A DNA stretch of 64,000 bases from an uncultured Pseudomonadales bacterium (GCA_964509695.1 CAZDXN010000001.1:51188-115187), one strand, 5' to 3'; numbered from the stretch's first letter, positions 15,177-53,771 are shown. Program-made: numbers and translations. Notes: generated by a model from the sequence alone, not told the origin.

Positions 15177-15217
15177 TTCATAATTAGTATGTTTTATATA
15201 GTAATTATGAAACAAGT

Positions 15218-19282: not shown

Positions 19283-19289
19283 TAAGTAT

Positions 19290-19578: not shown

Positions 19579-21084
19579 ATGACTATGAAAGTTCTCCTCA
19601 TTAATCCCCCCTGGATATTAGACCAAAAAGACCAAGACTTTTTTCGTGTTACTCAGCCAGAAGGGCTAGGCTATATCAGTGCTGTTCTCAAGCAAGGGAG
19701 CCACGCGGTCAAACTTGTTGATGCTGCCGCCAGCGGCTGGTATAAAAAAAGAACCCTCCCCGATGGCAGAATCTATTACGGTCTTTCACACAATGAAATA
19801 GCCAGTATTATAAGGAAATTCAAACCGAAACTTGTTGGTATCTCTATAATATCGTCCCTGTTAAAAAATAATGGCTATTCACTTGCAAAATATATTAAAA
19901 ATAAATTTCCTTCAACCAAAATCGTCATCGGCGGTCCCCACCCATCGGTGACAGTCAAGGAATCGCTTAATAATTCATTTATAGACTTCGTTGTCTTCGG
20001 AGAGGGAGAAATCACGACCTTGGATTTAGTCAACCAATTGAGTAGACAAAAACCACGTTTCAAAGGAATTAATGGTCTTGCTTACAAATCAAAGGGAAAA
20101 ATATTCATTAACCCCATTAGGGATTTCATCAAAGATTTGGATAGTCTACCCTTCCCCGATCGAAGTCAGTATCCAATGCACGATTATTTTAAGGCTTCAC
20201 AAAAGCTCCTCTCCTCTTTCGCCCTTTCGACCTACAACAAACGCTGGGGAACCGTAATTAGTAGTCGGGGTTGTCCTTACAACTGCATCTTTTGCTCCAT
20301 TCATTTAACAATGGGGAAAATCTGGCGTTCACGCAGCGCCGAAAACGTCATGGCAGAAGTTGAACAACTGGTAAATAAATATCGAATTCAGAAAATTGCC
20401 TTTCTCGACGACAATATGACCTTTGATATTGAAAGAGTTCATCGAATTTGTGACCTTATTTTGGAAAGAAAATTAAAATTTCGATGGAGCACACCAAACG
20501 GAATTAGAGCTGATCGTTTAGACGAGACATTACTACTCAAAATGAAAAAAGCCGGTTGCGTCAGGATCGCCGTGGCTCCAGAAAGTGGCAGTCAAAAAGT
20601 GGTTTATCATTTAATAGGGAAGGCTCTTGATCTGAAAAAAGTTGTCGAAATAGTAAAAATCTGTAAGCGTATCGGGCTTAAAGTCGATTGTTTTTTCGTT
20701 ATGGGTTTACCAGGGGAAACAAAAAGAAACCTCCGTCAAACAATCAACTTTGCCTCCCACTTGAAAAGATTAGGCGCCAGCGGATTCAATTTGGCGATAG
20801 CTACCCCGTTCATTGGGACACGTCTCCATAAAGTATTCACCGACAAGGGCTTTCTCAAACCAGATTTCGATGAGTTTACAATGTTCAGGAATGAGTCTTT
20901 CATCGAAACGGACACTCTCAAAGCTGCCGATCTCATAAGATACAAAAACATCGCAGCGCGGCTGAATAGATTCCCGGTAGAATATATTAAATTTATAATA
21001 CTAGTTCTTTTCCGTGACCCAGAAAGATTTATTCGTCTATTCAAAGCGCAAATCCCCTCGAATTTTGCATTTATAAAGAAATAA
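19579..21084 (+). CDS. B12-binding radical SAM protein (class B)
   Basis: The N-terminal B12-binding Rossmann region (VKLVDAAASG..., GISIISS) is followed by a SRGCPYNCIFCS Cx3Cx2C motif. Confidence 0.75.
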   Translation: MTMKVLLINPPWILDQKDQDFFRVTQPEGLGYISAVLKQGSHAVKLVDAAASGWYKKRTLPDGRIYYGLSHNEIASIIRKFKPKLVGISIISSLLKNNGYSLAKYIKNKFPSTKIVIGGPHPSVTVKESLNNSFIDFVVFGEGEITTLDLVNQLSRQKPRFKGINGLAYKSKGKIFINPIRDFIKDLDSLPFPDRSQYPMHDYFKASQKLLSSFALSTYNKRWGTVISSRGCPYNCIFCSIHLTMGKIWRSRSAENVMAEVEQLVNKYRIQKIAFLDDNMTFDIERVHRICDLILERKLKFRWSTPNGIRADRLDETLLLKMKKAGCVRIAVAPESGSQKVVYHLIGKALDLKKVVEIVKICKRIGLKVDCFFVMGLPGETKRNLRQTINFASHLKRLGASGFNLAIATPFIGTRLHKVFTDKGFLKPDFDEFTMFRNESFIETDTLKAADLIRYKNIAARLNRFPVEYIKFIILVLFRDPERFIRLFKAQIPSNFAFIKK

Positions 21085-21089
21085 ACGAT

Positions 21090-22964
21090 ATGTGCGGAAT
21101 CGCTGGATTTAGATCAGCCGGTAATGAAAATAACAAGGTAACTCTCGACTCGATGTTGGCCACAATTACTCACCGTGGTCCTGATGAGAAGGGCGTTTTG
21201 TTTGATAAAGATCTCTCAATCGGCATGCGTCGACTTTCCATCATCGACCTTAATACCGGCAGTCAACCGATCTTTAATGAAGATAAGTCTATCGTTATTG
21301 TCTTCAACGGTGAAATATACAATTTCCAAAAACTATACCGGGATCTAAAAAGAAAAGGTCACAAATTTAGAACCAAAACAGACACCGAAGCGATCATTCA
21401 TTTATACGAAGATTTGGGTATTAGGTGTGTCGAAAAGCTAAACGGCATGTTTGCCTTTTGTATCTACGATAAATCAAAGGGAAAATTATTTTTTGCCGTC
21501 GATCGAGCTGGCAAAAAACCTTTATACATATATCATTCCGGACCCAATTTTGCTTTTTCCTCAGAACTAAAAAGTTTTTACAAGCTTCCATTTTTCAAAA
21601 AGCGCCTTAATATACCCGCTCTTGATAAATTCTTTCTTTATGGTTATATTCCCTCCCCCCTCACACCATATCTGAATACAGTAAAACTTCCAGGAGGTAG
21701 CCTTGCCGTTTTTGATATGCGCGAAAATAGTTTGACTTACAAGAATTATTGGGACTTTGATTATTCAGAAAAACTCGACCTTTCAGAAGCTGAATGGGTA
21801 AAGAAGATTGATCGTCTTCTCACCCAATCGGTTAGAAGTCGACTTGTATCTGACGTTCCCCTAGGCTGTTTCTTGAGTGGTGGGGTCGATAGTAGTCTCG
21901 TCGTAGCTTGCATGAGCAAGTTCCTCAAGGGTAGAGATATAAAGACTTTTAGCATTGGCTTCGATGAACAAAGAGTGAATGAATCGAATTATGCACGACA
22001 AGTAGCGGATCTGTATCACACCGACCACCATCTAAAGATATTTCCTCAAAACGAGGCGCTTTCCGTTAGCCGGGAAATCTTTACCAAGATGGATGAGCCG
22101 CTAGCCGACCCCTCCATCCTTCCCACTTTTCTACTCTCCCAATTCACTCGCGGTTACGTCACTGTTTCTCTTAGCGGGGACGGTGGCGATGAAATGTTTG
22201 GTGGCTATCCAAAGTATTACATCCACCGCTATGCCCGTTATCTGGACATGCTTCCTGAAAAGCTGAAACTGAGCCTAGCAGAAAAGATATCTCAAAGACT
22301 AAAGACTAGCCCCAATAATAAATATCTAAACTACAAAGCAATTAGATTTTTGAATAGTCTCAAGTACCCACCCATACTTCGAAATCAGATCTGGTCGGGG
22401 AGCTTTTTACCAGATGAGGCCGGCCATCTAATTTCTGACATTAAAAGTAACGCTGTCGACCTAATGACCGAAGCACCGGAACTTATCAGGAGTCAAACAT
22501 TTTCGGACCCTCTCGATATAATGTTATATCTCGACGCCAAGCTAATGCTTAAAGACGCCTATTTAACCAAGGTTGACCGTGCCAGTATGGCCGCATCGCT
22601 CGAAGTTCGCTCTCCATTTTTGGACAAATCGATTCTCGATATTACCGGCCGAATCCCCCTTGGATTAAAAGTAAAAGGCAGACAGACCAAATATCTCCTA
22701 AAGCTAGTTGCAGAAAAATATTTCCCCAGAGAGTTGGTCTATCGCCACAAACAGGGTTTTGGCCTACCCCTCGCCGAATGGTTTCGTCGAAAGGAATTAA
22801 CCTCTGAAATTAGAGAGCTACTAGGACAGAGAAGGGGAGTGGATAGACTTTCAACCTCATATATAAATTCACTGATAAGAATGCATCAAAATGGTACCTT
22901 TGATTACTCAACCCAACTCTGGACTATCTATGCCTACCTCAACTGGGTTCAATATAACCTTTAA
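21090..22964 (+). CDS. asnB: Asparagine synthase (glutamine-hydrolysing)-type amidotransferase
   Basis: MCGIAGF N-terminal nucleophile, SGGVDSS PP-loop and the overall AsnB architecture. Confidence 0.85.
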   Translation: MCGIAGFRSAGNENNKVTLDSMLATITHRGPDEKGVLFDKDLSIGMRRLSIIDLNTGSQPIFNEDKSIVIVFNGEIYNFQKLYRDLKRKGHKFRTKTDTEAIIHLYEDLGIRCVEKLNGMFAFCIYDKSKGKLFFAVDRAGKKPLYIYHSGPNFAFSSELKSFYKLPFFKKRLNIPALDKFFLYGYIPSPLTPYLNTVKLPGGSLAVFDMRENSLTYKNYWDFDYSEKLDLSEAEWVKKIDRLLTQSVRSRLVSDVPLGCFLSGGVDSSLVVACMSKFLKGRDIKTFSIGFDEQRVNESNYARQVADLYHTDHHLKIFPQNEALSVSREIFTKMDEPLADPSILPTFLLSQFTRGYVTVSLSGDGGDEMFGGYPKYYIHRYARYLDMLPEKLKLSLAEKISQRLKTSPNNKYLNYKAIRFLNSLKYPPILRNQIWSGSFLPDEAGHLISDIKSNAVDLMTEAPELIRSQTFSDPLDIMLYLDAKLMLKDAYLTKVDRASMAASLEVRSPFLDKSILDITGRIPLGLKVKGRQTKYLLKLVAEKYFPRELVYRHKQGFGLPLAEWFRRKELTSEIRELLGQRRGVDRLSTSYINSLIRMHQNGTFDYSTQLWTIYAYLNWVQYNL

Positions 22965-22967
22965 CAA

Positions 22968-23882
22968 ATGACCAAAGAGCTTGTTTCCATAATTATTCCG
23001 ACACGAAACCGATGTCAAAAATTACTTCGGTGTTTAAATTCGCTAGAAAAAATCAATTATCCTTACACCGAAACGATCATCGTCGATAACGCCTCATCAG
23101 ACGATACCGTCGCAACAATAAAAAAACGATTCCCAAAGCACAAAGTAATAAGACTTTCAAAAAACAAAGGCGCTGTTGGTGGTAGGAACGCTGGACTCAA
23201 GTTCGCTCGTGGTAAATATTTACTTTTTGTTGACGACGACAATATCGTCACGGTAAATTTCCTAGACAAACTGGTTCAGCTGGCAATCACCGACCCGACG
23301 ATCGGTTTCGTCGGTCCCAAAATGAATTACTTCAAAGACAAAAAACGAATTTGGTTCGCCGGCGTCAAGATAAATCTATTAACCTCATGGACCCATTACC
23401 TTGGAATAAACCAACTGGACCGTGGCCAATTTGATCAAATTAGGGAGATAGATCAGATCCCCAATGTTTGGTTGGTAAAGAGAGAGGTCGTAGAAAAAAT
23501 TGGAGGACTCGATAAGAATTATGTCATGTCCTATGGCGAGTCAGACTGGCCAATGAGAGCAAAGAGGGCGGGGTTCAGGGTTCTATTCTGCCCTGGCTCG
23601 GTCGTTTATCACGATATCGTTCCGCCGAAGAATCTCAAAGAAAACATCCTACTTCGAGCCACACCATATCGAGCCTATTATTTTGCCAGAAATCGGATCA
23701 TTTTTATGCGCCGCTTTACCAGTAAAGCCAACTTTCTAATTTTTCTTTTCATATTCAATAATTTGTTCACCATTTATTATCTTTACACTTATTCTAAAGG
23801 AGGAAAGTTCAATCTTTGTTTTTGGCACCTACGGGGAATCGTTGACGGGATACTTAATAGAAATTATCAATTCAAGGAATAG
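22968..23882 (+). CDS. GT2 family glycosyltransferase
   Basis: VSIIIPTRNRCQKL...IIVDNASSDDT and LLFVDDDN motifs. The C-terminus is hydrophobic. Confidence 0.7.
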   Translation: MTKELVSIIIPTRNRCQKLLRCLNSLEKINYPYTETIIVDNASSDDTVATIKKRFPKHKVIRLSKNKGAVGGRNAGLKFARGKYLLFVDDDNIVTVNFLDKLVQLAITDPTIGFVGPKMNYFKDKKRIWFAGVKINLLTSWTHYLGINQLDRGQFDQIREIDQIPNVWLVKREVVEKIGGLDKNYVMSYGESDWPMRAKRAGFRVLFCPGSVVYHDIVPPKNLKENILLRATPYRAYYFARNRIIFMRRFTSKANFLIFLFIFNNLFTIYYLYTYSKGGKFNLCFWHLRGIVDGILNRNYQFKE

Positions 23883-23919
23883 ATAGACGAATGAAGGCTC
23901 TTACGTTATATTTAGCCAA

Positions 23920-25371
23920 ATGAAAGTTCTGTTAGTTAGCCCCTGGATGAAGACTTTGTATGGTGATGAAAAAACCGTCCCCGGCCATCCTCATCTTGGA
24001 TTGGGGTATCTGACCGCGGTTCTAAAGAAGAATAAACACCAAGTCAGGGTCTTTGACCAGGCCATCGAAAACGATGACGCGAAACTCTATGAATTAATTA
24101 GATCATTCAAACCAGACTTGATTGGATTTAATGCCTTTAGTTATTGCACCAAGTACGTTTCGGATCTTTCACAAGAAGTTAGGAAACGGACCAAAACTCC
24201 ATTAATTCTCGGAGGACCCCATGTCTCCGCGGTTCGTTCTCGCGTACTGGAACAAATGCCCTTTGATTACGCCATCAAAGGTGAAGCCGAAGCTAGTTTG
24301 CTGGTATTTCTAAACGAAATGAAGAAAAAAAAGCCAAAATTTGACACAGTCAAAGGATTAATTTGGCGTAATTCAAAAGGGGAGATTATTGAAAACCAGG
24401 ACATGGCCTACATACATGACCTCGACGCAATTCCTTTTCCGGATTATTCTGAATTCAAATTCGAAAAATATGCCTATTTTACCAGCAAAACCATGCCCAT
24501 CATTACCAGCCGAGGATGCCCCTATGGCTGTAACTATTGCTCGGTCAAGTTATCTATGGGGAGAGGATTCCGCCCACGAAGCCCCCAAAATGTTTTAGCT
24601 GAAATAAAACATTGGTGCGGACAAGGATTCAAAAAATTCGAGATCAATGACGACTGTTTCAGTTTGGACTTGAAAAGAGCCGAGAAAATCTGCGATCTAC
24701 TGATCGAACAAAAGCTAAATATCAGCTACGATATGTATAACGGTATCCGCGCCGACAGGGTAAGTAAGATTCTTCTCCAAAAAATGAAAAACTCAGGCTG
24801 CAAATTCATTTCTTATGGTTGTGAATCAGGAGATCAAAATATCATTATTTCCATGGGAAAGAATCTCAAACTTACGGAAGTAACAAAAGCAGTAAAATTG
24901 ACAAATAAAATCGGCATTAGAAACTCGGTAAACTTTATTATTGGCCACTCAAGCGAAACCAAAAAATCAGCCGAAAAAACACTAGAGTTTGCCAAGAAAC
25001 TTCCCACAGACTTCGTGAACTTTTACAACGTCATTCCTTATCCTGGAACCGATCTATATAACTGGATCGAAAAAAAAGGCCAGTGGATTTATCACCCTGA
25101 CTACATCATGAAGAATATCGGTAGTCGGGACTTGAAACCCGCCTTTGAAACTGAGGGGTTCTCTTCTGAAGAAAGAATTGTAACCCTTAAAAAAGGCTTT
25201 GCCCTTTACGAAAAAAGCGTTCTCAATTTTCGTTTTGGCAAATTCTTTGGGAGAGTCATATATTACCTTACTCGAAATCGAAAGATTTTTTCAGCGGCAC
25301 TCAAGCTGATGCTAAGTACTAAATTGGGCTTTAAATTATATTCTTTAATAACATTTAAATCGCGCCAATAA
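23920..25371 (+). CDS. B12-binding radical SAM protein (class B)
   Basis: TSRGCPYGCNYCS motif and B12-binding N-terminus. Paralog of 19579, 26177, 45863 and 47978. Confidence 0.75.
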   Translation: MKVLLVSPWMKTLYGDEKTVPGHPHLGLGYLTAVLKKNKHQVRVFDQAIENDDAKLYELIRSFKPDLIGFNAFSYCTKYVSDLSQEVRKRTKTPLILGGPHVSAVRSRVLEQMPFDYAIKGEAEASLLVFLNEMKKKKPKFDTVKGLIWRNSKGEIIENQDMAYIHDLDAIPFPDYSEFKFEKYAYFTSKTMPIITSRGCPYGCNYCSVKLSMGRGFRPRSPQNVLAEIKHWCGQGFKKFEINDDCFSLDLKRAEKICDLLIEQKLNISYDMYNGIRADRVSKILLQKMKNSGCKFISYGCESGDQNIIISMGKNLKLTEVTKAVKLTNKIGIRNSVNFIIGHSSETKKSAEKTLEFAKKLPTDFVNFYNVIPYPGTDLYNWIEKKGQWIYHPDYIMKNIGSRDLKPAFETEGFSSEERIVTLKKGFALYEKSVLNFRFGKFFGRVIYYLTRNRKIFSAALKLMLSTKLGFKLYSLITFKSRQ

Positions 25372-26180
25372 TGTTACCTCAAGTCGAAGATATCTTTATC
25401 GTTGTCAACCGGATCAACTCCAAACCATGTGTTTGGTCTTATCTTACCTCAATCGAATATATGCTTCGAAGCAAACTTTACATGAGTTATCTTCTCAGAG
25501 ACGCTAAATCAGTCGGCGACGAACTTAAAATACTCGAAAAGAGAAAGAACAAGGGTCTAAAGGTTTTAGATATCGGCACCGGTTCGGGAATCTTTGCCGT
25601 GTTGTTACGTAAAGAAAATAAGCGAATCAGGTTAGAGGGACTCGACGCCTTCGTCAATACCAGCCAATCCGATCCGAATTTCCACGATACAGCAAAACAA
25701 CAAAAATCACTCTGGGAAAGTCTTTCATCAAGCTACAATGTTAAGTTTTCTCACTACGATGGTCTAAAAATCCCTTACAAAGACGAATCATTTGATATCA
25801 TCACCGCCTACGCCGTTATCGAGCACGTCTTTCCCCCAGACCTAGATAGAGTTGTGAAAGAAATACGTCGTGTCCTGAAAAAGGATGGACTACTCTTCAT
25901 TTTTAAATGTCCGCGGACATTATCATATAACGAACACCTCGCCAAGTTCATAGGGATAAAGGCTCATGATCTGTTGTTTTCCGACAAACAAGTCCGAGAT
26001 TTGTTCAATAAACATCAGTTCAAGATAATTAAACACTGGCGTTCGGATATGGTCCCAGCCTTTCCTGCCAAGCTAACAAATATATTCTATAAACTACTAA
26101 AAGTTCTTGATCACGTTCTGACAGCTAGCCCGCTTCAAATATTTGCCCATCACAACAACCTAGTCGTCAAAAAAAGTTGA
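25371..26180 (+). CDS. Class I SAM-dependent methyltransferase
   Basis: VLDIGTGSGIFAVLL motif I and AYAVIEHV motif. Confidence 0.7.
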   Translation: MLPQVEDIFIVVNRINSKPCVWSYLTSIEYMLRSKLYMSYLLRDAKSVGDELKILEKRKNKGLKVLDIGTGSGIFAVLLRKENKRIRLEGLDAFVNTSQSDPNFHDTAKQQKSLWESLSSSYNVKFSHYDGLKIPYKDESFDIITAYAVIEHVFPPDLDRVVKEIRRVLKKDGLLFIFKCPRTLSYNEHLAKFIGIKAHDLLFSDKQVRDLFNKHQFKIIKHWRSDMVPAFPAKLTNIFYKLLKVLDHVLTASPLQIFAHHNNLVVKKS

Positions 26181-27721: not shown

Positions 27722-27723
27722 TC

Positions 27724-28440: not shown

Positions 28441-28451
28441 CAAATAATATT

Positions 28452-36790: not shown

Positions 36791-36793
36791 ACA

Positions 36794-45235: not shown

Positions 45236-45855
45236 AAAAAATAAAACTTAATCTCGGTTCGGGACCGTCCGGAATAAACGGCTGGGTTAATTATGACACT
45301 GGAGTACTTCCTTGGCTCTCAAGACATCCCCAACTTAGGCATCTAATTTGTGCTTTGGGTCTGTTACCCAAAAATTACGACGTCGAATGGCCTGAAATCC
45401 AACTGGTCGATATAAGACACAAGTTTCCTTTGGAAGATGAATCTGTCGATTTTATTTATTGTTCCCAAGTAATCGAGCATTTTGAAAGATATGAAGCTCT
45501 AAATATACTAAGGGAGTCTCACCGGGTTCTAAAACTTGATGGAGTTATCCGCATCAGTGTCCCGGATATAGAGAAAATGCTTAGTCCTGATTTTACCGCC
45601 AGAGAAATAAACGTCCTCTGGTGGGGATACGAAAAAGATATTCCTCCTGCAAATATTTTCTCCAAGATTTCACGGCTATTTATTCGCGAACATCAATGGC
45701 ACTATGACACTACATCAATGAAAAAGCTCCTCTCTCAAGCTGGCTACAGGAGGGTGAAAACGTGCTCATTCAGAAGAGGTGAAACACCTGATCTTGATCG
45801 AGTTGAGATTGATGCTCACAAAAAGCACAGCCTCTATATAGAGGCAAAGAAATAG
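45232..45855 (+). CDS. SAM-dependent methyltransferase (Methyltransf_11/23-like)
   Basis: KLNLGSG motif I and FIYCSQVIEHF motif. Confidence 0.6.
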   Translation: MKKIKLNLGSGPSGINGWVNYDTGVLPWLSRHPQLRHLICALGLLPKNYDVEWPEIQLVDIRHKFPLEDESVDFIYCSQVIEHFERYEALNILRESHRVLKLDGVIRISVPDIEKMLSPDFTAREINVLWWGYEKDIPPANIFSKISRLFIREHQWHYDTTSMKKLLSQAGYRRVKTCSFRRGETPDLDRVEIDAHKKHSLYIEAKK

Positions 45856-45862
45856 ATCAGAT

Positions 45863-47212: not shown

Positions 47213-47991
47213 AAAAAAAGATTGAAAAAAACCGTTGGCAAGCTGCCCAAAAATTTGAATACAATGACTGGGCAAATATGCCAAACATCGTAACAGATGA
47301 ATGGAAAGAGCTCGTGAAGAAATATTCAAAACTATTTCCAAAAATCGCCAAAAGCTCTGACCTGAAAGATTCAGACGCCATTCTCGACGTCGGCTGCGGT
47401 CCAACCGTCCCAGCCAGGCTTCTTAGAAAAGGAAGGGTCACTGGTATCGAACCCCTAGCAGATAAACTCAAGATCTCTGGAGGAAAGTACTTACCCGGCG
47501 TAAATATCATCTGCGGCAAAGCCGAAAAAATGCCTTTTAAAGATCACTCATTTCAGTTCGTTGTCTGTCGAAACGTCATTGACCACACCCAGAATCCCAA
47601 GGTAATCATTAAAGAAGTAAAAAGAGTTTTAAAAAAAAATGGTCATTTTCTTCTAATTTCTTACACCTATTCACCTTTTATCACTTTTGTAAAAAACATT
47701 AGCGAGCGCATTGGATTATTTCGCAACATCGGTCATCCATTCACCTTCACACCAGAAATGCTTGACCAACTAGTTCAACCGGAATTTGAAATCAAACAAA
47801 GATATACTATTCACACAGGCAAAGATTCTACTGACTATGGCAAAGTGGGGGAGGAGATTGTTGACAATTCCTTGCTGCACAAGACGATGATATTTATTAA
47901 CAACAAAATTTTGGGAGAACCATGGTTTCTAAAGGAATACGGCTTCTTGTGCATCCCAACACCAAAACATACTAAATATGCCGAAGTCTAA
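47209..47991 (+). CDS. Class I SAM-dependent methyltransferase
   Basis: The start sits in an ATGA overlap with the upstream stop. ILDVGCGPTVPARLL motif I and VCRNVIDH. Confidence 0.7.
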   Translation: MKKKIEKNRWQAAQKFEYNDWANMPNIVTDEWKELVKKYSKLFPKIAKSSDLKDSDAILDVGCGPTVPARLLRKGRVTGIEPLADKLKISGGKYLPGVNIICGKAEKMPFKDHSFQFVVCRNVIDHTQNPKVIIKEVKRVLKKNGHFLLISYTYSPFITFVKNISERIGLFRNIGHPFTFTPEMLDQLVQPEFEIKQRYTIHTGKDSTDYGKVGEEIVDNSLLHKTMIFINNKILGEPWFLKEYGFLCIPTPKHTKYAEV

Positions 47992-49525
47992 AAAGAAAAT
48001 TATTCTAATTAGACCTCTCGTTTTTTCAAAGACGAGACCCTATTACGGTGCTCCACTCGCATTGTTGGCGATTTCCAAAATACTAGCAACCGAGGGTTAC
48101 AAGATAAAGATCATCGATCCGCTAACTCACAGGGACTATGTCACTGCTGTAGTTCGGGAAGCAAAAGACGCCATTTGCGTTGGTATTTCGGCCTTGACGG
48201 GATATTCTATTTTCGATGGATTACAAATTGCCCGGGCTGTCAAAAGGAAATATCCTAAACTTCCGGTCGTTTGGGGAGGCTGGCACCCGTCAATCCTCCC
48301 TCTTGAGACCATCAAAGACGAAAATGTCGATATTGTGGTCTACGGACAAGGCGAAAGAACCTTTACCGAATTGGTCCACTCCATAGAGAAAAATAAAACA
48401 TTAAAAAATATTAAGGGGATAATCTATAAAAATAAGAAGGGAAAAATAGTTCAAAATACACCGAGACCAATCGAATCGTTAGACAACTTCCCCCCCGTTC
48501 CTTATCACCTGATCGACGTAAAGAAATTTCTCGTCCCTCAAGAATACGGGAAAAGATCTCTAGTCTATTACACAAGTTTTGGTTGTCCTCATCGATGCAT
48601 TTTCTGTGTCGAACAAATCGTAAACAACCGTCATTGGGCCGGACTCTCTCCAGAGCGGGCCGTGGAAGAAATCACCGACATGAAACAAAAATACGGAATT
48701 GACTCAATCCAGATTATCGATAGTAATTTCTTTATCAATGAGGATAGGTCCCGGAGGTTCGCCCAACTCTTAATCGATCAAAAAGTGAACATAAAGTGGG
48801 GAAACGTGAACGGCAGAACTAGGCAGATGAGCCAATACAGAGATTCCACCTGGAAGCTAATGAAACAAAGCGGCCTCGAATGCATCCTGATCGGAGCCGA
48901 GTCGGGCAGCAACGAGACTCTGAAATATATGAAGAAAGATATCACCGTCGCTGACACTCTAAATTTGACCAAGTTCTGTGCCAGATATGACATAAAGATT
49001 CTTAGTTCGTTCTTAGTCGGATTTCCTCACTCAGCCGATCCAGAGAAATGTTACAAGATCACCGAAAAGGAACTAGCCACCTCTCTGAGGTTAATCGATA
49101 AAATGTTCAAGATCTATCCTCGAATTAGAATGATGTTTGCCTTATTCCTCCCCTATCCCAGCACCGCCTTGTTCGAAGAAAGCCGGAGAATGGGTTTAGA
49201 GATACCCGAAAGACTTGAAGATTGGCACGAATTTCTGATTGCGGCTGAAGATGCATCCAAAATCAGAGTCCGTCAAAAATGGATTACCCAGGAACAAGCG
49301 CGCCGGATCTTAATGATTTCTATCTATATATTTTTCTTTATGGATCCTGATTCATTCAATTTGGTCACCGCCAAAATTAATAATCCGTTGAAAAAAGCCT
49401 TTCTCCATTTTGGGTTCCAAGTTTTCAAAAAGATTGTTGACTTGCGTTGGAAATATAAATATTTTGGATTACCAATCGACTTTTGGTTTTATAATATTTT
49501 AAGAAAATATAGCGGTCTAGGATAA
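47978..49525 (+). CDS. B12-binding radical SAM protein (class B)
   Basis: TSFGCPHRCIFCV motif and B12-binding N-terminus. Confidence 0.75.
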   Translation: MPKSKKKIILIRPLVFSKTRPYYGAPLALLAISKILATEGYKIKIIDPLTHRDYVTAVVREAKDAICVGISALTGYSIFDGLQIARAVKRKYPKLPVVWGGWHPSILPLETIKDENVDIVVYGQGERTFTELVHSIEKNKTLKNIKGIIYKNKKGKIVQNTPRPIESLDNFPPVPYHLIDVKKFLVPQEYGKRSLVYYTSFGCPHRCIFCVEQIVNNRHWAGLSPERAVEEITDMKQKYGIDSIQIIDSNFFINEDRSRRFAQLLIDQKVNIKWGNVNGRTRQMSQYRDSTWKLMKQSGLECILIGAESGSNETLKYMKKDITVADTLNLTKFCARYDIKILSSFLVGFPHSADPEKCYKITEKELATSLRLIDKMFKIYPRIRMMFALFLPYPSTALFEESRRMGLEIPERLEDWHEFLIAAEDASKIRVRQKWITQEQARRILMISIYIFFFMDPDSFNLVTAKINNPLKKAFLHFGFQVFKKIVDLRWKYKYFGLPIDFWFYNILRKYSGLG

Positions 49526-49535
49526 AGTTCTCTCC

Positions 49536-50675
49536 ATGATGATTTTTATTGCCAATCAATTCGTAGGGAAAAATCTTTCAACAGGCGGAGATATCCTTGC
49601 CGTGGAAATGGCCAAGAGAATCAGGGGGAAACTGACAATACTTGCCCCAATTCAGATTCACGCGCAACTATCAAAGGCACTTCCGAAGGCAACTTTAATT
49701 ACCACCAATGCTTTGTATTCGTCCTCGGCTACAGCATCCACACTCTACGGTGGAATATCTATATTTATTAGCTATCTAATTCGATCGTGGAGAAGTACCT
49801 CGTGGCTTCTAAAGAACATCAAGAGCGGCGATCGAGTCTATCTAACTGGTGATTTTATTTGTAACACCCTACCAGCATGGATAATCAAGATGGTAAAGCC
49901 TGAAACAATAGTTCTCGCGAACTTTTATCATCGAAATCCAAGACCAAACGCACGTCTTGGAAACAACTACGTTGTCAGTGCCTTCTCGCGTTTCCTGCAA
50001 AATATTAGCCTAAAAATTCTAAGAAAGATAATCTTCAAAATCTTTGTTCTTTCAAAAGTTGGAGAGGGCGAGTTGGTCAATGAAGGGTTCATCTCTTCAC
50101 AAATCATTGTTTCTGGAGCAGGGACAAATATTGACAAACAAAGACGAAATCTAGCGAGGAAAAAAAATCAAATTGTTTTTGTGGGGAGAATAAATATTAC
50201 CAAGGGGGCATTCGATCTCATAGAGATCTTTAACCAAGTAGCCAAAAAGAACAATAAAGTCAGACTGATAATGCTCGGTGGATCATCAGGGGCAGACAAA
50301 TCAAAGTTGGAAAAGTTGATAAAGGACTATTCTTTAGGGGATAGGATCAGATATCTAGGGTTCGTAGACGAAATAACAAAAAACAAAATCTTGTCTGAGT
50401 CAAAAGCCTTGGTTTTACCATCGAAAGAAGAGGGCTTCGGAATTGTTATTATGGAAGCACTGGCTCTTAGAACACCAGCGGTCTGTTACGACTTACTGGC
50501 GCTAAAGACAATTTTTTCAAGATATCAATCAGTCAATTTTGTAAAAAAGTTTACGAAACAAAAGTTTGCAGACAAAATCATCAAAGTTGTGTCAGAAAAA
50601 AAAGAAGTCCCAGTAGAAAACCTAGGATCATGGGACGATGTTTACAAAATTCAGTCAAAATATTTTTCGCAATAG
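49536..50675 (+). CDS. GT4 family glycosyltransferase
   Basis: KEEGFGIVIMEALALRTPAVCYD GT4 signature. Confidence 0.7.
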   Translation: MMIFIANQFVGKNLSTGGDILAVEMAKRIRGKLTILAPIQIHAQLSKALPKATLITTNALYSSSATASTLYGGISIFISYLIRSWRSTSWLLKNIKSGDRVYLTGDFICNTLPAWIIKMVKPETIVLANFYHRNPRPNARLGNNYVVSAFSRFLQNISLKILRKIIFKIFVLSKVGEGELVNEGFISSQIIVSGAGTNIDKQRRNLARKKNQIVFVGRINITKGAFDLIEIFNQVAKKNNKVRLIMLGGSSGADKSKLEKLIKDYSLGDRIRYLGFVDEITKNKILSESKALVLPSKEEGFGIVIMEALALRTPAVCYDLLALKTIFSRYQSVNFVKKFTKQKFADKIIKVVSEKKEVPVENLGSWDDVYKIQSKYFSQ

Positions 50676-50679
50676 ATAA

Positions 50680-52863
50680 ATGAAAGAAATACTCAATAAA
50701 ATTGTCCGTCCCGCGATTCCATTATTTCCACTGTTGCTTATTACCGCGATCTTCATTCTTCCGCTTACCAAACCGGGGTTGATTGTTGGAGGCGACTGGA
50801 CCTTTCCCTCCTCCAACCAAGAGCTTCGGGTCTTTGGCGACCGAGCCTTTTCGGTTTGGGTCAACGCTGAAATACCCTTCGGAACACAAGTCTCTCATAA
50901 CAATCTATATTTGTTTCAGATACTTGCCCACCTTTGGGCATCGATCGGATTTAACGGAATAAGCTTCCAAAAGATTACCCTTTTTCTAACAATCTTTGGC
51001 ATTTATGTGTTTTCGTATCGTTTACTTTTAAAGCTCACCAGATCTCCGTTTGCGTCCGTGGTGGGGGCCATGAGTTACCTCTTTTCTCCCATCGTCTTCA
51101 ACTACCTCAATATGGGCTGGAACTATGTCTTGCTTTTTTTGGCCCTCGCCCCTCTCTTTACCCAAATTGCCCTCGACTTCTTCAAAGACGGAAAAAAGAA
51201 ACACATCATCGCCCTTGGCCTAATCTCGGCCATAAGCTTCTTCCAATCCCAATCGATTGTTTGGCTCCCCCTTATTTTTATCTGTATTTTCATCTCTCAA
51301 GTCACTAGAAAAAATTTATTAAAAAACCTTCTGCGTTTCGGCACGGCCTCAATCGGAATCGTCATAATCGTTCTCATCGTTCATCTGCCTTGGCTTCTCC
51401 CCATAATTCTAAACCCCGGCAATATCATTAACAGCACATCAGCAATTGACCTGAAAAGGTTTTCGGAGGTACTCTCAATATCAAATCAATTCCGTCTCTG
51501 GGGGAGTCTATACAACCAAGAATTTGAGCTGGCTTTTCCCCAGGTACTGGTTCTGTTTCCCTTTGCCCCAATCCTAATTTGTGTCCTCTCACCACTATTG
51601 TCCTCGTTTGAAAAAAAAAGGCTGCCGGCTTACCTCCTCGTGTTGCTACTGATATCAATTGCCCCCACACTATACATCTTCCGTGGAGCGATCGCCGACC
51701 TCCCGTTCGCCGCGGTGGTCAGGGATATCAGTAGATTTCTTGTAATTACTTCCCTGGGCTTTTCGTTGGGAATCGCGCTTACACTCTCCGTCAACAAAGG
51801 TCGATTGGGCCGGGTAATTATTTGCATTGTATTAATTCTTTCGGCAATACCGTATTTTCTTGGTAGATTATATACACTAACCGGTGACCCATCGCCGCAA
51901 TCGAACGAGTATAAGGATTTTCGCGCCAGGCTACTATCCCTTCCCGAAATAGAAAACGAATCAACGCTCCCACTTTCTAACCAAACAAACATTTTTTTGC
52001 CCACGGGGGGATTTATCTTCACAAAAACTGACACCCGGTTCAATCGTGACTTTTGGAGTATTGCTGACATCCAAGGCAATTTTTCTCCGATCGCATCGGG
52101 AATGTATTTCACCGATAAGAGCGATTTTCTGATATCCAACCTTGTCCAAAATTATTCGCTGGTAAGTAACAATATTGACCTTTTGACCGCTTTCTTTCGA
52201 GTCTACGGGATTAACAACCTTGTTTATCGTTCTGGACTCGAATCGACTTACAAATCGCAGTTAGATCGTGACGGCATCCAAAAAAAATGTCAGGCAGTCC
52301 TTCCGGAAAGTGATTCTGATTGGTCCATTACCTCGATTTGTACCATTAAAGATACTTACCCCCTCATTTATGCTTCTGTATTACCCCGATATTCAGCCAG
52401 ACCGTTTAGTGAGATATTGTCTGAAAAAAATAATCAAGACCGCATCGTCATTTTGGGCTGTCCGAAAATGATAAAAGAGAAAAGTATTATTTGTAATATT
52501 GGCAAAGTTGATAATTTAGCCTCTACCGCCCCATCCCTGAAGTTTAATAAAATCTCCGAGACGAAGTACCGTCTCGAAGTCGAGGATATCAGGGGGAAAT
52601 TTTTATTAGTTTTTAATCAAACGTATCATCCTGGCTGGGTTATTCGAAGTAAGTTTGGGGAAAAGCTAAACCTTCCCCACATTCTGGTAAATCAATTGGT
52701 TAATGGTTGGGTGGTGGATCCGGCAGGGGATCTGGACAAGGAAGAATACATTATCGAGTTTTACCCTCAGATGCTCTACTCGGGACTATTGCCGATCTCG
52801 TTAATTAGTATCCTAATTATGCTGCTCTACCTCGTCTACCAATCGAAATCAAAAAGTCAATGA
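50680..52863 (+). CDS. Large polytopic membrane protein, YfhO-like GT-C candidate (paralog of 29224..32040)
   Basis: Multi-TM N-terminus and an extracytoplasmic C-terminal domain. The FNQTYHPGWVI...VNQLVNGWVV...EFYPQ block and terminal TM helix are shared with 29224. Confidence 0.5.
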   Translation: MKEILNKIVRPAIPLFPLLLITAIFILPLTKPGLIVGGDWTFPSSNQELRVFGDRAFSVWVNAEIPFGTQVSHNNLYLFQILAHLWASIGFNGISFQKITLFLTIFGIYVFSYRLLLKLTRSPFASVVGAMSYLFSPIVFNYLNMGWNYVLLFLALAPLFTQIALDFFKDGKKKHIIALGLISAISFFQSQSIVWLPLIFICIFISQVTRKNLLKNLLRFGTASIGIVIIVLIVHLPWLLPIILNPGNIINSTSAIDLKRFSEVLSISNQFRLWGSLYNQEFELAFPQVLVLFPFAPILICVLSPLLSSFEKKRLPAYLLVLLLISIAPTLYIFRGAIADLPFAAVVRDISRFLVITSLGFSLGIALTLSVNKGRLGRVIICIVLILSAIPYFLGRLYTLTGDPSPQSNEYKDFRARLLSLPEIENESTLPLSNQTNIFLPTGGFIFTKTDTRFNRDFWSIADIQGNFSPIASGMYFTDKSDFLISNLVQNYSLVSNNIDLLTAFFRVYGINNLVYRSGLESTYKSQLDRDGIQKKCQAVLPESDSDWSITSICTIKDTYPLIYASVLPRYSARPFSEILSEKNNQDRIVILGCPKMIKEKSIICNIGKVDNLASTAPSLKFNKISETKYRLEVEDIRGKFLLVFNQTYHPGWVIRSKFGEKLNLPHILVNQLVNGWVVDPAGDLDKEEYIIEFYPQMLYSGLLPISLISILIMLLYLVYQSKSKSQ

Positions 52864-53771
52864 AAAACAAGCGATCGATCTTCATCGCCATGTCATTGTT
52901 TTTATATGGACTGGTAACCTTCGGGTCTTTTTTGAGGAACTACGAACCCGGCCTGTCAATATTGATCCATGAACACCCCAACCTATTTCTGAAAAATACC
53001 CCGATGCTCGCGGGGAACAAAGTAACCTTCGAAATTGTGTCCCCCCACAACGGACTTGGCATCGTTGCGGTGCGTTTCAGAACATACGGGAGAGTAAACG
53101 ACGATGTCCTGACGTTTCGGATGAAGCCAAAGGGTGCCTCGACCTGGACATACTCCGCAAATTACAAGACAGATCAGTTCCAAGATGGGAAGCTTTTTCC
53201 GTTTGGTTACCCAGTAATCCCGGATTCAAAAAATGGAACCTACTTGATCCAGTTGGAATCACTATCCGGTACTGAGGACAATCATGTTTCCGTAGATACC
53301 GGTAACCCAATCATCGTCAGTAAATATCATTATCCCCAAACAACATCAAAGAATATCCAGTTTGGTTTCAGGAAAGCCTTCAACCTTCTCTCCAACTCCT
53401 CTACAGCCTTTCCCATATTATTTTATTTTTGCCCGTTTTTATTATATTTACTCAATTTATTTTCAATATTCAAAAGAAAAAAACCCTCGTATTTCTCGAT
53501 TCTATTTCCCGCAACGCTGATGCTATCAGCTTACTTCCTCAAGCTTCCCGTTCCTGATTACTGGGAACTCACGCTGGCACTAACCTGGCTTGTTTATGTT
53601 TTGGTAAGCAAAGTATCTTATCGCTTCAGTGTTGCGCTGTCTTTGCTTGCGGCTCTCTATCTGGTGATCCAGTCCCTCAAGAACGATGCCTTCGATGTTG
53701 ATCAGGCTGGGCAATGGCTCTACTACAGTCTTCTTCTGGCCATAATCCAAGTTAAAGCCAAAAGCTATTAG
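52860..53771 (+). CDS. Membrane-anchored protein with the conserved uncharacterised FRTYGRVNDD/YKTDQFQ/LFPFGYP domain
   Basis: N-terminal TM helix, then GIVAVRFRTYGRVNDDVLTF...YKTDQFQDGKLFPFGYPVIPDSKNG, then C-terminal TM helices. Confidence 0.5.
   Translation: MKNKRSIFIAMSLFLYGLVTFGSFLRNYEPGLSILIHEHPNLFLKNTPMLAGNKVTFEIVSPHNGLGIVAVRFRTYGRVNDDVLTFRMKPKGASTWTYSANYKTDQFQDGKLFPFGYPVIPDSKNGTYLIQLESLSGTEDNHVSVDTGNPIIVSKYHYPQTTSKNIQFGFRKAFNLLSNSSTAFPILFYFCPFLLYLLNLFSIFKRKKPSYFSILFPATLMLSAYFLKLPVPDYWELTLALTWLVYVLVSKVSYRFSVALSLLAALYLVIQSLKNDAFDVDQAGQWLYYSLLLAIIQVKAKSY

Follow-up and report, generated by a model that had tools for sequence, protein, structure and literature searches.

A glycan or glycoconjugate locus combining B12-type radical SAM enzymes with AftD-like GT-C glycosyltransferases

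Several described systems resemble parts of the locus reported here. In the tailoring of moenomycin unit F in Streptomyces ghanaensis, MoeGT1, MoeF5 (reportedly an AsnB-like amidotransferase) and MoeK5 unite a glycosyltransferase (GT) with an amidotransferase of AsnB type and a class-B radical SAM (rSAM) enzyme, as does our locus; this is a likeness of gene content. The substrate of the moenomycin enzymes is a lipid-linked sugar on the cytoplasmic side of the membrane, as we propose for the present system, moeK5 acting at the earliest, lipid-linked monosaccharide stage (PMC3814723). However, moenomycin is a secreted antibiotic made with one rSAM and no GT-C enzyme, whereas the locus encodes five to six rSAMs, ten methyltransferases and no fewer than four GT-Cs besides a Wzx flippase, and a MoeO5-like prenyl-phosphoglycerate synthase is absent from it.

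Class-B rSAMs that methylate carbohydrate-type substrates include GenK, GenD1, Fms7, MoeK5 and Fom3. MoeK5, listed as a Csp3-methylase, shares an SSN cluster with Fom3 and HpnJ, and SD1168 falls within that main cluster (PMC9204698, PMC12931638); SD1168 is a P/C-methylase whose physiological substrate is not known (PMC9204698), and for HpnJ the proposed substrate is a lipid-linked amino sugar (PMC13459092). The C-methylases GenK, GenD1 and Fms7 and the diol dehydratase AprD4 combine class-B architecture with sugar substrates, as proposed here, but the aminoglycoside rSAMs act on soluble pseudo-oligosaccharides in secondary metabolism, from clusters without a GT-C partner. HpnJ, of hopanoid cyclitol ether formation, and Sden_1168/SD1168 provide the highest-scoring curated profiles for most of our paralogs; yet membership would require 575-578 bits, and scores of 98-274 bits place the paralogs outside both families. 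The locus is also devoid of hopanoid or phosphonate genes.

On the transfer side, the mycobacterial arabinan pathway deploys the GT-Cs AftA-D and Emb, and the AftD-type fold with large extracytoplasmic sugar-binding domains is common to two proteins of the locus (29224 and 50680; genes are named by the lower coordinate). Its logic, tailoring of decaprenyl-P-arabinose on polyprenyl phosphate followed by dedicated GT-C transfer, is that of our model; it differs in that tailoring falls to DprE1/E2 rather than to rSAMs and methyltransferases, in that identity to AftD is only about 10% with PF11847 unmatched, and in that our host is non-actinobacterial. Finally, the three-component systems (GtrA/GtrB/GtrC; ArnC/ArnD/ArnT; Streptococcus PgfS/PgfM1/PgfE/PgfM2) have counterparts in a putative PgfS/ArnC-like GT2 (36794), GT-Cs and an epimerase, and ArnD sets a precedent for modification of a lipid-linked monosaccharide. 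In contrast to them, the locus has no detected GtrA-type flippase and its scores lie below cut-offs, while those systems are without radical SAM enzymes. In agreement with the initial annotation, our literature search turned up neither a described pathway nor a publication matching the composition of the locus.

Gene content and layout

The window, i.e., the whole analysed stretch of 64,000 nucleotides, was inventoried by Pfam (54 ORFs scanned) and NCBIfam profile searches. Its features, from left to right, are as follows (TM, transmembrane; MT, methyltransferase).

363-2027, minus: polytopic membrane protein, about 8 TM, C-terminal TPR repeats (Pfam TPR only; TM prediction)
2024-3481, minus: GT2-MT fusion (Pfam)
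3474-4553, minus: GT2 (Pfam)
4486-5487, minus: GT2 (Pfam)
5474-7210, minus: GT2-FkbM MT fusion (Pfam; NCBIfam FkbM TIGR01444 above cut-off)
7232-8251, plus: radical SAM/SPASM enzyme (Pfam Radical_SAM and SPASM)
8241-9257, minus: GT2, two predicted C-terminal TM helices (Pfam, NCBIfam, TM prediction)
9279-10373, plus: GT2, two predicted C-terminal TM helices (Pfam, NCBIfam, TM prediction)
10379-11497, minus: 8-TM membrane protein, weak match to a "cell surface glycopolymer formation" family (TM prediction, NCBIfam)
11513-13051, minus: divergent B12-type rSAM paralog (Pfam Radical_SAM, NCBIfam, alignment)
13096-13785, minus: FNR-like flavoprotein, FAD_binding_6/NAD_binding_1 (Pfam, NCBIfam)
from 16834 (block 16834-18743), plus: GalE-like NDP-sugar epimerase/dehydratase (Pfam, NCBIfam)
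from 17685 (same block), plus: GHMP sugar kinase, HddA-like below cut-off (Pfam, NCBIfam)
from 18755 (block 18755-19499), minus: membrane-anchored F5/8 type C (carbohydrate-binding) protein (Pfam, NCBIfam)
19290-19499, minus: 4Fe-4S ferredoxin, 69 aa (Pfam, NCBIfam, alignment)
19579-29231, plus: cassette 1 tailoring part, in order B12-rSAM, AsnB-type amidotransferase (from 21090), GT2, B12-rSAM, MT, B12-rSAM, MT, MT (Pfam, NCBIfam)
29224-32040, plus: AftD-like GT-C glycosyltransferase (AF2 and Foldseek)
32024-34759, plus: polytopic membrane protein, N-terminal "domain X" (about residues 29-200), then about 14 TM (TM prediction, jackhmmer)
34756-35271 and 35256-36032, minus: split, minimal transketolase-like ThDP enzyme (Pfam, NCBIfam)
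35945-36790, plus: SDR oxidoreductase (Pfam, NCBIfam)
36794-37756, plus: PgfS/ArnC/GtrB-like GT2, C-terminal TM helices (NCBIfam below cut-off, TM prediction)
37707-45235, plus: middle block, in order MT, MT, domain-X membrane protein (39345-40175), MT, GT2, 14-TM protein (41924-44083; TM prediction), GT4 (from 44084; Pfam)
45232-50675, plus: cassette 2 tailoring part, in order MT, B12-rSAM, MT, B12-rSAM, GT4 (from 49536) (Pfam, NCBIfam)
50680-52863, plus: second AftD-like GT-C (jackhmmer, pairwise alignment, BLAST)
52860-53771, plus: domain-X membrane protein
53768-54280, minus: hexapeptide-repeat sugar O-acetyltransferase (Pfam, NCBIfam)
57004-60034, plus: two PMT_2-type GT-C membrane glycosyltransferases, starts 57004 and 58400 (Pfam)
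60723-61742, plus: GDP-mannose 4,6-dehydratase, Gmd (Pfam, NCBIfam)
62327-63565, plus: Wzx/MOP-family flippase (Pfam, NCBIfam)

Between 19579 and 53771 all long ORFs lie on the plus strand, with the sole exception of the transketolase pair (34756-36032, minus), and adjacent genes either touch or share a few bases; the near-uniform, tightly packed run described in the initial annotation is thus borne out by the ORF layout. GT genes extend over about 80 kb, and the evidence supports assembly of a surface glycan or glycoconjugate as the task of the whole window together with no less than 10 kb on its left side and 7 kb on its right. The domain searches recovered every accessory enzyme that had been named: AsnB, Gmd, the epimerase, the GHMP kinase, the SDR, the split transketolase, the acetyltransferase, the Wzx-type flippase and the SPASM radical SAM enzyme at 7232-8251, which reached no NCBIfam equivalog. 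The estimate of about ten class I methyltransferases also holds, with eight free-standing genes (starts 25371, 27643, 28452, 37707, 38626, 40168, 45232 and 47017) and two fused to GT2 (2024-3481 and 5474-7210), as do the two GT4 enzymes (44084 and 49536). The remaining GT counts were too high: instead of 11 GT2 enzymes and a separate GtrB-like transferase there are nine GT2-domain proteins, both fusions and the GtrB-like one included, giving 11 Leloir-type GTs (9 GT2 and 2 GT4) rather than 13. The GtrB-like protein (36794-37756), which scores 231 bits against PgfS (NF047588; cut-off 500) and 125 bits against ArnC (cut-off 529) and has two predicted C-terminal TM helices, is probably a polyprenyl-phosphate sugar synthase.

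The host is probably an ultra-small groundwater member of the Patescibacteria (CPR, Microgenomates group), the taxon being judged by one transferable gene, Gmd, whose homologs from 97% down to 70% identity are, where named, all Patescibacteria or Microgenomates. An identical protein is encoded on a contig of assembly GCA_016183355.1, whose accession series suggests a groundwater MAG.

The B12-type radical SAM enzymes

Six B12-rSAM paralogs had been proposed. Five of them (19579-21084, 23920-25371, 26177-27721, 45863-47212 and 47978-49525) carry both B12-binding (PF02310; 53-71 bits, cut-off 32.1) and Radical_SAM (PF04055) domains above Pfam cut-offs, and all five align with a CX3CX2C motif. 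The sixth (11513-13051, minus) lies outside the 19579-53771 interval, matches Radical_SAM but not PF02310 in Pfam and has CX4CX2C (CMFGKCTFC) in place of CX3CX2C; we count it as a divergent paralog because its NCBIfam alignments to HpnJ and BchE cover the greater part of the protein. It has orthologs in three related loci (L008, L009 and L090), that of L009 with identical CX4CX2C spacing (CWWGKCTFC). TM prediction found no TM segments in any of the rSAMs or methyltransferases, which are therefore placed in the cytoplasm.

Pairwise identity among the six paralogs is only 20-37%; therefore, a single shared chemistry is not necessary. Against the NCBIfam class-B profiles (Sden_1168, HpnJ, BchE, ApyD, AprD4, PhpK, HpnR, KedN5, TsrM, QCMT, BzaD, ladderane) none of the six reached a curated equivalog cut-off. 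The best scores were 274 bits for 26177 (Sden_1168; cut-off 575), 210 for 19579 (cut-off 575), 173 for 23920 (ApyD, a RiPP enzyme; cut-off 750), 125 for 45863 (HpnJ; cut-off 578), 130 for 47978 (BchE; cut-off 481) and 98 for 11513 (HpnJ; cut-off 578). HpnJ ranks first or second for five of the six and third for 26177, and the AprD4 profile scores 137 bits against a 500-bit cut-off; 19579 and 26177 both have AprD4 (6fd2) as their best PDB sequence match (E 2.5e-29 and 9.8e-15, respectively). Among the nearest relatives are methylases (Sden_1168, TokK) as well as non-methylases (HpnJ, AprD4 and the cyclase BchE).

In the AF2 model of 26177-27721 (pLDDT 92.5) a Rossmann-like domain at the N-terminus precedes the radical SAM domain in a class-B fold. 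The model matches the cobalamin-rSAM structures TsrM, MgmA, TokK, OxsB and CysS with E values of 1e-19 to 1e-22, and AprD4 ranks equally. Since AprD4, to our knowledge, does not use cobalamin, this fold alone is no proof of cobalamin use; nor does fold comparison with this predicted model separate methylases from other class-B enzymes. Of the heavily C- and O-methylated glycan originally suggested, the glycan locus, the class-B fold and the integral place of the rSAM genes stand, while a C-methylase role is not established, the best profiles being mixed.

We consider a C-methyl (branched-chain) sugar the most likely product of the rSAMs and a deoxygenated or rearranged sugar possible. It is rather unlikely, in our view, that the B12-type rSAMs of this sugar-modifying locus are all non-methylating, catalyzing deoxygenation/diol dehydration like AprD4, ring contraction giving carbocycles like that proposed for HpnJ, Cds and OxsB, or C-C cyclisation, with every methyl group supplied by the ten class I methyltransferases. 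The AprD4 and HpnJ rankings given above accord with such chemistry, as do the glucosamine ring contraction proposed for HpnJ and the B12-type cyclases GrsA/B (PMC13459092), and ten methyltransferases already explain abundant methylation; however, five paralogs keep a B12-binding domain above the Pfam cut-off, the characterised members of the SSN cluster of HpnJ, Fom3, MoeK5 and SD1168 are mostly methylases (PMC9204698), and paralogs this divergent need not share one reaction. More improbable still is a scheme wherein the rSAMs act on a lipid (polyprenyl carrier or membrane lipids, as HpnP, HpnR, Gmm and GrsA) or a protein acceptor (as QCMT, Mmp10 and PoyC) and are merely co-regulated with envelope glycosylation. 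In its favor are the known methylation of lipids and peptides by class-B rSAMs (PMC13459092, PMC12931638), the top NCBIfam match of 23920 to ApyD, the presence of MgmA/QCMT among the best structural matches, and the PMT_2 enzymes and TPR-containing membrane protein, which suggest protein acceptors. Against it, precursor-peptide or lipid-synthesis genes are absent from the window and its relatives, the partner genes conserved in different phyla encode GTs, AsnB, sugar epimerases and GT-Cs, and lipid- and peptide-family scores lie far below cut-offs.

GT-C enzymes and the recurrent rSAM/GT-C cassette

TM prediction yields nine polytopic membrane proteins in the window, Wzx included. Four of the roughly eight GT-C-like proteins initially listed are supported (29224, 50680, 57004 and 58400), while family searches with the others (363-2027, with TM and TPR; 10379-11497; 32024-34759; 41924-44083) gave no family assignment; the first of these has an acidic "SDD" motif right after TM1 and is a possible PMT/TMTC-like GT-C candidate. 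In the 29224-32040 protein, 11 TM are joined to a large beta-rich domain outside the cytoplasm, and a further TM lies at the C-terminus. Its AF2 model (pLDDT 84.2, pTM 0.81) presents a GT-C fold, with an N-terminal multi-TM module and the extracytoplasmic domain, for which Foldseek returned AftD (6w98; E 1.4e-16, TMq 0.55) as best match, followed by STT3, AglB, PglB, ArnT and AftA; D35 of "GHNWD", after TM1 in the first external loop, is invariant across 16 homologs. The 50680-52863 protein is its paralog: jackhmmer aligns the TM part and the C-terminal domain, pairwise identity is 26%, and "GGDW" after TM1 occupies the position aligned with the acidic motif. Neither matches PF11847 (GT-C_AftD) in Pfam even at E 0.1, this domain being found only in remote homologs (P0147, P0148, P0155, P0156). 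The modelled fold and the PgfS/ArnC-like GT2 suggest that both would use a polyprenyl-phosphate sugar donor. The PMT_2 block (57004-60034) keeps its reading frame in a relative (L084), and the flippase (62327-63565) matches Polysacc_synt at 80 bits (cut-off 28.2).

Among the 54 ORFs there is no initiating phosphoglycosyltransferase, Wzy polymerase or chain-length regulator (Bac_transf, Glycos_transf_4 MraY/WecA, Wzy_C, Wzz), the scanned ORFs, covered systematically from 100 aa upward, contain no GtrA-type small flippase, and the search of the window detected no nucleotidyltransferase. As we read it, the assembly route thus has gaps; the missing initiating, polymerase and chain-length genes could lie outside the window or among the membrane proteins without a family.

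Two copies of a cassette occur in the window, each with B12-rSAM(s), methyltransferase(s) and a GT followed by an AftD-like GT-C. One related locus (L085) keeps, at 62% identity, the order ferredoxin, F5/8, B12-rSAM, AsnB, GT2, B12-rSAM, MT, B12-rSAM, MT, GT-C, membrane protein, transketolase, transketolase, SDR, GT2, MT, MT, domain X, MT; thus, the F5/8-ferredoxin pair beside the cassette and the transketolase pair/SDR arrangement are both conserved. When loci were picked by rSAM homology, an AftD-like GT-C followed the rSAM on the same strand in L002-L009, L012, L013, L085 and L086, within 3.5 kb of it in 11 of these loci, often abutting it, and about 7.8 kb away in L009; these forward-sampled loci derive from Bathyarchaeota, Hecatella, Delta- and Gammaproteobacteria, Planctomycetia, Omnitrophota and Beckwithbacteria. 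Conversely, among seven loci picked by GT-C, six (L085, L002, L086, L089, L090, L091) have a B12-rSAM upstream within 2.8 kb, directly abutting the GT-C in L086, L089 and L091, and the seventh (L092) has the GT-C and methyltransferases without a B12-rSAM. In L091, YfhO or PMT_2 GT-C genes alternate with B12-rSAM genes. Overall, the rSAM/GT-C motif recurs in numerous uncultured prokaryotes: Bathyarchaeia, another archaeon, Proteobacteria, Planctomycetia, Omnitrophota and CPR.

The neighborhoods of 82 related loci contain GTs in 44 cases and methyltransferases in 29, and arrays of 2-7 B12-rSAM genes stand beside GTs in 38; hence, the uniqueness of the rSAM density in a glycan context was overstated. 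That the rSAM genes are a genuine component of the locus is upheld by the L085 synteny and the adjacency across phyla. As the genes are neither dispersed nor non-syntenic in relatives, a chance juxtaposition of unrelated rSAM and glycan genes has a negligible probability: nothing speaks for it beyond the fact that both kinds of gene are generally common in the genomes of anaerobes, against gene-for-gene synteny with L085, adjacency kept across two domains of life and overlapping, tightly spaced, co-directional ORFs.

Proposed mechanism and implications

Briefly, we advance, at a probability of roughly 55%, a model in which this surface glycan or glycoconjugate locus directs cytoplasmic tailoring of sugars by rSAMs and methyltransferases and then GT-C transfer outside; its substrate, chemistry, electron supply and final acceptor we infer. 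Cytoplasmic GT2 and GT4 enzymes would assemble sugars on polyprenyl-phosphate carriers, and the PgfS/ArnC-like 36794 product would make polyprenyl-P-monosaccharides. Soluble tailoring enzymes, namely the five to six B12-type rSAMs, ten class I methyltransferases, AsnB, the acetyltransferase, the transketolase-like ThDP enzyme and the SDR, would alter nucleotide- or lipid-linked sugars ahead of export, with the in-locus ferredoxin and FNR-like flavoprotein as a candidate electron source for the rSAMs. The Wzx-type flippase and the GT-Cs (two AftD-like, two PMT_2-like and perhaps others) would then transfer these altered sugars to a protein or a wall polymer on the external face of the membrane, each rSAM presumably producing the modified sugar for its downstream GT-C.

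It is very improbable that the product is instead a secreted, moenomycin-like phosphoglycolipid or oligosaccharide natural product. The GT, AsnB-type amidotransferase and B12-rSAM do mirror unit-F tailoring and content varies between close relatives, but the Wzx flippase, the four or more GT-Cs and the proteins of TPR/PMT type indicate that a polymer or protein is glycosylated outside the cytoplasm. We saw neither a prenyl-phosphoglycerate synthase nor a resistance gene nor a dedicated exporter, and a run of GT genes about 80 kb long is in keeping with a role in building the envelope of a cell with a small genome.

Beyond the surface-glycan model for this locus, we tentatively suggest, at somewhat less than even odds, that the cross-domain cassette of a B12-rSAM and a dedicated GT-C (AftD-like, YfhO or PMT_2) may be an unrecognised route of envelope glycan diversification, in which radical C-alkylation or rearrangement of polyprenyl-phosphate-linked sugars would furnish branched or carbocyclic donors for extracytoplasmic glycosylation. 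We know of no CPR bacterium that makes B12; if the proposal is true, a CPR cell surface would depend on cobalamin scavenged from other organisms.

Cassette architecture of the locus

The window appears to hold a surface-glycan locus carrying a tailoring module in which B12-binding radical SAM enzymes (B12-rSAMs) are coupled to polytopic membrane glycosyltransferases (GT-Cs); the module is the part that appears to be new. A Pfam scan of 54 window ORFs bore out the domain calls of the initial annotation almost throughout: its roughly ten class I methyltransferases (MTs) comprise eight free-standing enzymes and two fused to GT2 domains, and its two GT4 enzymes, SPASM rSAM, AsnB, Gmd, epimerase (GalE-like), GHMP kinase, SDR, split transketolase, acetyltransferase (hexapeptide) and Wzx/MOP flippase are all present by Pfam and NCBIfam. 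The same searches yielded nine GT2-domain proteins, in place of the 11 plus a separate GtrB-like enzyme counted initially. Further, of the six B12-rSAM paralogs counted initially, five carry both expected domains, whereas the sixth is divergent and lies outside the interval 19579-53771. The + strand ORFs of 19579-53771 abut or overlap almost without break in the ORF map; only the two transketolase genes, on the - strand, interrupt the run. The GC content (0.36-0.47) is even along the window, in which Rfam and tRNA scans detected no rRNA, tRNA or Rfam feature.

Selected features of the window. Each B12-rSAM on the + strand has PF02310 and PF04055 above gathering scores and a CX3CX2C motif (Pfam, alignment).
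363-2027: polytopic protein with TM and TPR segments, no family assignment
7232-8251: SPASM rSAM, the only one (Pfam)
10379-11497: polytopic protein, no family assignment
11513-13051, - strand: divergent B12-type rSAM (Pfam: Radical_SAM only)
13096-13785, - strand: FNR-like flavoprotein, adjoining rSAM genes
19290-19499, - strand: ferredoxin, 69 aa, adjoining rSAM genes
19579-21084, + strand: B12-rSAM
23920-25371, + strand: B12-rSAM
26177-27721, + strand: B12-rSAM
32024-34759: polytopic protein, no family assignment
34756-36032, - strand: minimal split transketolase
41924-44083: polytopic protein, no family assignment
45863-47212, + strand: B12-rSAM
47978-49525, + strand: B12-rSAM
57004 and 58400 (starts): PMT_2-type GT-Cs (Pfam)

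The core of the locus consists of a middle block and two cassettes that are paralogous to each other:
Cassette 1, 19.3-34.8 kb: ferredoxin, B12-rSAM, AsnB, GT2, B12-rSAM, MT, B12-rSAM, MT, MT, AftD-like GT-C, polytopic protein with domain X (an unnamed domain)
Middle block: transketolase-like pair, SDR, PgfS/ArnC-like GT2 (231 bits to NF047588, under the cut-off), three MTs, domain-X membrane protein, GT2, 14-TM protein, GT4
Cassette 2, 45.2-53.8 kb: MT, B12-rSAM, MT, B12-rSAM, GT4, AftD-like GT-C, domain-X membrane protein

The reductant for the rSAMs could plausibly be supplied by the ferredoxin and the FNR-like flavoprotein. The split transketolase may be a two-carbon branch-forming enzyme acting on a keto-sugar; its 171-aa Pyr subunit lacks a Transketolase_C domain, and in L085, a close relative, the gene call for the N-terminal subunit gives a 782-aa protein. 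As for the divergent rSAM, Pfam finds no B12-binding domain in it, NCBIfam aligns it to HpnJ and BchE over most of its length, and its cluster motif is CX4CX2C (CMFGKCTFC) as against the canonical CX3CX2C. It represents a genuine divergent subfamily rather than a pseudogene, because a Beckwithbacteria ortholog (locus L009, 1398-2855) keeps the same spacing (CWWGKCTFC).

Defense and toxin-antitoxin islets lie inside the glycan locus at 13881-16698, 55540-56930 and 60103-60721; they comprise a DUF4143 ATPase that PADLOC matches to its candidate system PDC-S01, two AbiEi/AbiEii pairs and a Gp49-like toxin paired with an HTH protein. A 295-aa soluble ORF (54599-55486, - strand), unmatched in Pfam, NCBIfam and PADLOC, separates the acetyltransferase from an AbiE pair. 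Only 3 of 55 genes have a Shine-Dalgarno-like 4-mer in the 20 nt upstream, as compared with ~9% at random positions, and this rarity suggests SD-independent initiation in this organism.

Membrane glycosyltransferases and their recurrent pairing with B12-rSAMs

Hydropathy analysis identified nine polytopic membrane proteins in the window, Wzx among them. The 938-aa protein of cassette 1 (29224-32040) has no match in Pfam or NCBIfam; however, its AlphaFold2 model, built from 16 homologs (pLDDT 84.2, pTM 0.81), is confident and matches AftD, an arabinofuranosyltransferase of mycobacteria, best among solved structures (Foldseek E 1.4e-16, TMq 0.55), followed by STT3, AglB, PglB, ArnT and AftA. Remote sequence homologs carry PF11847 (GT-C_AftD), and the motif GHNWD right after TM1 contains an Asp that does not vary among 16 aligned homologs; the catalytic acid of GT-Cs usually sits just after TM1. 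The cassette 2 protein (50680-52863, 727 aa) is a paralog that aligns in both its TM part and its C-terminal domain, with 26% identity. A full HMMER search recovered ~12,000 cluster representatives at E <= 1e-3 (2,847 at E <= 1e-30); hence this AftD-like family is large, but it is uncharacterised.

Domain X (~150-170 aa) occurs in three copies sharing 36-47% identity: 32024-32620 (the N-terminus of 32024-34759), 39345-40175 and 52860-53771. In each it is placed between an N-terminal TM segment and further TM helices, and two of the three lie directly 3' of an AftD-like GT-C. Neither Pfam nor NCBIfam matches it, and among the fetched loci it is found outside the window sequence (repeated in L001) only in L085. 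Lenient Pfam and NCBIfam searches, together with jackhmmer against all fetched loci, likewise returned no family for the C-terminal part of 32024-34759 or for 41924-44083, 39345-40175, 52860-53771 and 54599-55486.

The initial annotation had raised the question of whether the locus is conserved as a unit, and the comparative data indicate that it is: gene order is kept in L085, and the rSAM/GT-C adjacency recurs across phyla. In L085 (GT-C 62% identical) the order holds from the ferredoxin to the third MT of the middle block, with one MT fewer, while the gene set is kept but reshuffled in L002/L003 (rSAM 57% identity) and L086 (rSAM 53%, GT-C 36%). The rSAM has more than 7,000 homologs. We annotated with the window's own proteins 80 genome loci with homologs of the 26177 rSAM, among the matches listed. 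Of 82 loci, 44 have a GT within 10 kb, 38/82 have at least two B12-rSAM genes (up to seven) and 29/82 a class I MT. A GT-C profile search found the AftD-like GT-C downstream on the same strand in 12 loci (L002-L009, L012, L013, L085, L086), at a distance of <=3.5 kb in 11 of them, often abutting, and of ~7.8 kb in L009. These loci belong to Bathyarchaeota, the archaeon Hecatella, Delta- and Gammaproteobacteria, Planctomycetia, Omnitrophota and the CPR lineage Beckwithbacteria.

We also sampled in reverse, starting from the GT-C, so as to remove ascertainment bias (seven loci, the metagenomes yielding one with a narrow GT-C alignment). A B12-rSAM lies <=2.8 kb upstream of the GT-C in six of the seven (L085, L002, L086, L089, L090, L091), with no gap between the two genes in L086, L089 and L091; in L092 none was found upstream. 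Chance juxtaposition of the rSAM and glycan genes is ruled out by the L085 synteny together with this two-way sampling. Locus L091 (1-19018, Logan SRR22388342) reads YfhO, B12-rSAM, YfhO, B12-rSAM, AftD-like, 980-aa protein, PMT_2, B12-rSAM, PMT_2, with no Leloir GTs or MTs among the alternating genes; the alternation with YfhO and PMT_2 indicates that the pairing extends beyond the AftD-like family. The window is not unique, since the motif occurs widely among uncultured lineages. In the 21 kb of L076 (Omnitrophica UBA6253), seven B12-rSAM ORFs stand beside GT2 genes, a SPASM rSAM and a TPR membrane protein, a higher rSAM density than in the window.

In L084, a close relative (Gmd 97% identical), the PMT_2-PMT_2-toxin/antitoxin-Gmd-Wzx frame is kept but the upstream genes differ, which argues that the cassettes behave as exchangeable modules of a variable surface-glycan island. 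The same locus has HicAB where the window has the Gp49/HTH pair. On the left (L087) at least another 10 kb, and on the right (L088) at least 7 kb, are likewise GT-rich, with GT2, GT4, PMT_2 and MT genes; therefore, the glycan region spans ~80 kb, which takes up a large part of a genome of CPR size. The exact window proteins are also found on one NCBI contig (131.7 kb) and one Logan contig, and an identical TPR membrane protein in assembly GCA_016183355.1 (contig JACPEU010000026.1), probably a groundwater MAG judging by its accession series. Gmd homologs form an unbroken identity series from 97% to 70%, the named members of which are all Patescibacteria or Microgenomates-group. Among the matches listed, the closest named rSAM relatives include members of the Shapiro-, Gottesman- and Beckwithbacteria, and also archaea; Bathyarchaeota and Methanoperedens are among the rSAM-search matches. 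These archaeal matches led us to consider an archaeal source, which we regard as less likely given that the named Gmd relatives of high identity all belong to Patescibacteria; with moderate confidence, the window probably comes from a CPR bacterium.

Chemistry of the B12-type rSAMs

In the AF2 model of 26177 (pLDDT 92.5), a Rossmann-like domain at the N-terminus precedes the radical SAM domain, and the Foldseek matches of the model to TsrM, MgmA/QCMT, AprD4, TokK, OxsB and CysS are indistinguishable in significance (E 1e-19 to 1e-22), methylases not separating from non-methylases. Since enzymes of mixed activity match equally, the model establishes a class-B fold but no one chemistry. All six paralogs stay below the curated cut-offs of every NCBIfam family, with Sden_1168, HpnJ, BchE and ApyD as their best matches (98-274 bits vs cut-offs of 481-750). 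On this point the C-methylated glycan envisaged initially is only partly supported. The solved structure nearest by sequence is AprD4, a diol-dehydratase of sugars (E 2.5e-29 for 19579). This last match lends weight to a serious rival, namely that the rSAMs deoxygenate or rearrange the sugar instead, as do the ring contraction of a lipid-linked glucosamine proposed for HpnJ and the B12-type cyclases GrsA/B (PMC13459092). Against it, MoeK5, GenK, Fms7 and Fom3 are Csp3-methylases (PMC12931638), and Fom3, MoeK5 and HpnJ co-cluster in a sequence similarity network, in the same main cluster as SD1168, whose physiological substrate is unknown (PMC9204698). Weighing this clustering and literature, we consider sugar C-methylation the single most likely chemistry. 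With only 20-37% mutual identity and separate orthologs in other loci, the paralogs probably differ from one another in substrate or position.

We rejected the idea that the similarity to Sden_1168/PhpK points to a phosphonate glycan: there is no PEP mutase, and the ThDP enzyme is of the transketolase type, not the phosphonopyruvate decarboxylase type. A full-text literature search returned no match for 'Sden_1168'. Many homologs of 26177-27721 are named 'anaerobic magnesium-protoporphyrin IX monomethyl ester cyclase' by JGI, probably a mis-annotation propagated from BchE similarity, because they sit in glycan loci of non-phototrophs.

Proposed mechanism and significance

Briefly, we advance the following plausible mechanism. 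All rSAMs and MTs are predicted to be soluble by hydropathy analysis; being soluble, and needing SAM and low-potential electrons, they have their site of action in the cytoplasm. The donors of GT-C enzymes are sugars carried on polyprenyl phosphate and used on the outer face of the membrane (decaprenyl-P-arabinose for AftD, Und-P-Ara4N for ArnT), and in known systems (DprE1/E2, ArnD, MoeK5) the sugar is tailored while lipid-linked. As the order of rSAM (with MT and GT) followed by GT-C is conserved, each cassette would make a modified polyprenyl-P-sugar (or NDP-sugar), which its GT-C would then move onto a wall polymer or protein. For the ancillary steps we infer that AsnB may amidate uronic acids, as do the amidotransferases MoeF5 and WbpS, that the acetyltransferase and Gmd with the epimerase could add further decoration, and that the transketolase-like/SDR pair possibly installs a two-carbon branch.

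The nearest precedents are moenomycin unit-F tailoring, where formation of the first monosaccharide intermediate requires moeK5 (PMC3814723), the aminoglycoside rSAMs, the mycobacterial DPA/AftD pathway and the Gtr/Arn/Pgf three-component systems, but the locus is a member of none of these. Our literature searches found no description of class-B rSAMs in envelope or surface glycan loci or in a CPR context, and the rSAM-GT-C motif itself appears to be undescribed.

To our knowledge, the class-B rSAM family is very large, most of its members lack a known function and every member characterised as acting on carbohydrates belongs to an antibiotic pathway; so far as we are aware, the surface chemistry of CPR, DPANN-type archaea, Bathyarchaeia, Omnitrophota and Planctomycetota is essentially unknown. 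The window and its relatives present, in these same lineages, a recurrent operon-level coupling of class-B rSAMs with GT-Cs. If our reading is correct, it would predict new branched or rearranged sugars, provide a functional handle on thousands of mis-annotated "BchE-like" genes, and imply a B12 dependency of surface biogenesis in minimal-genome episymbiotic bacteria, which here devote ~80 kb to it.
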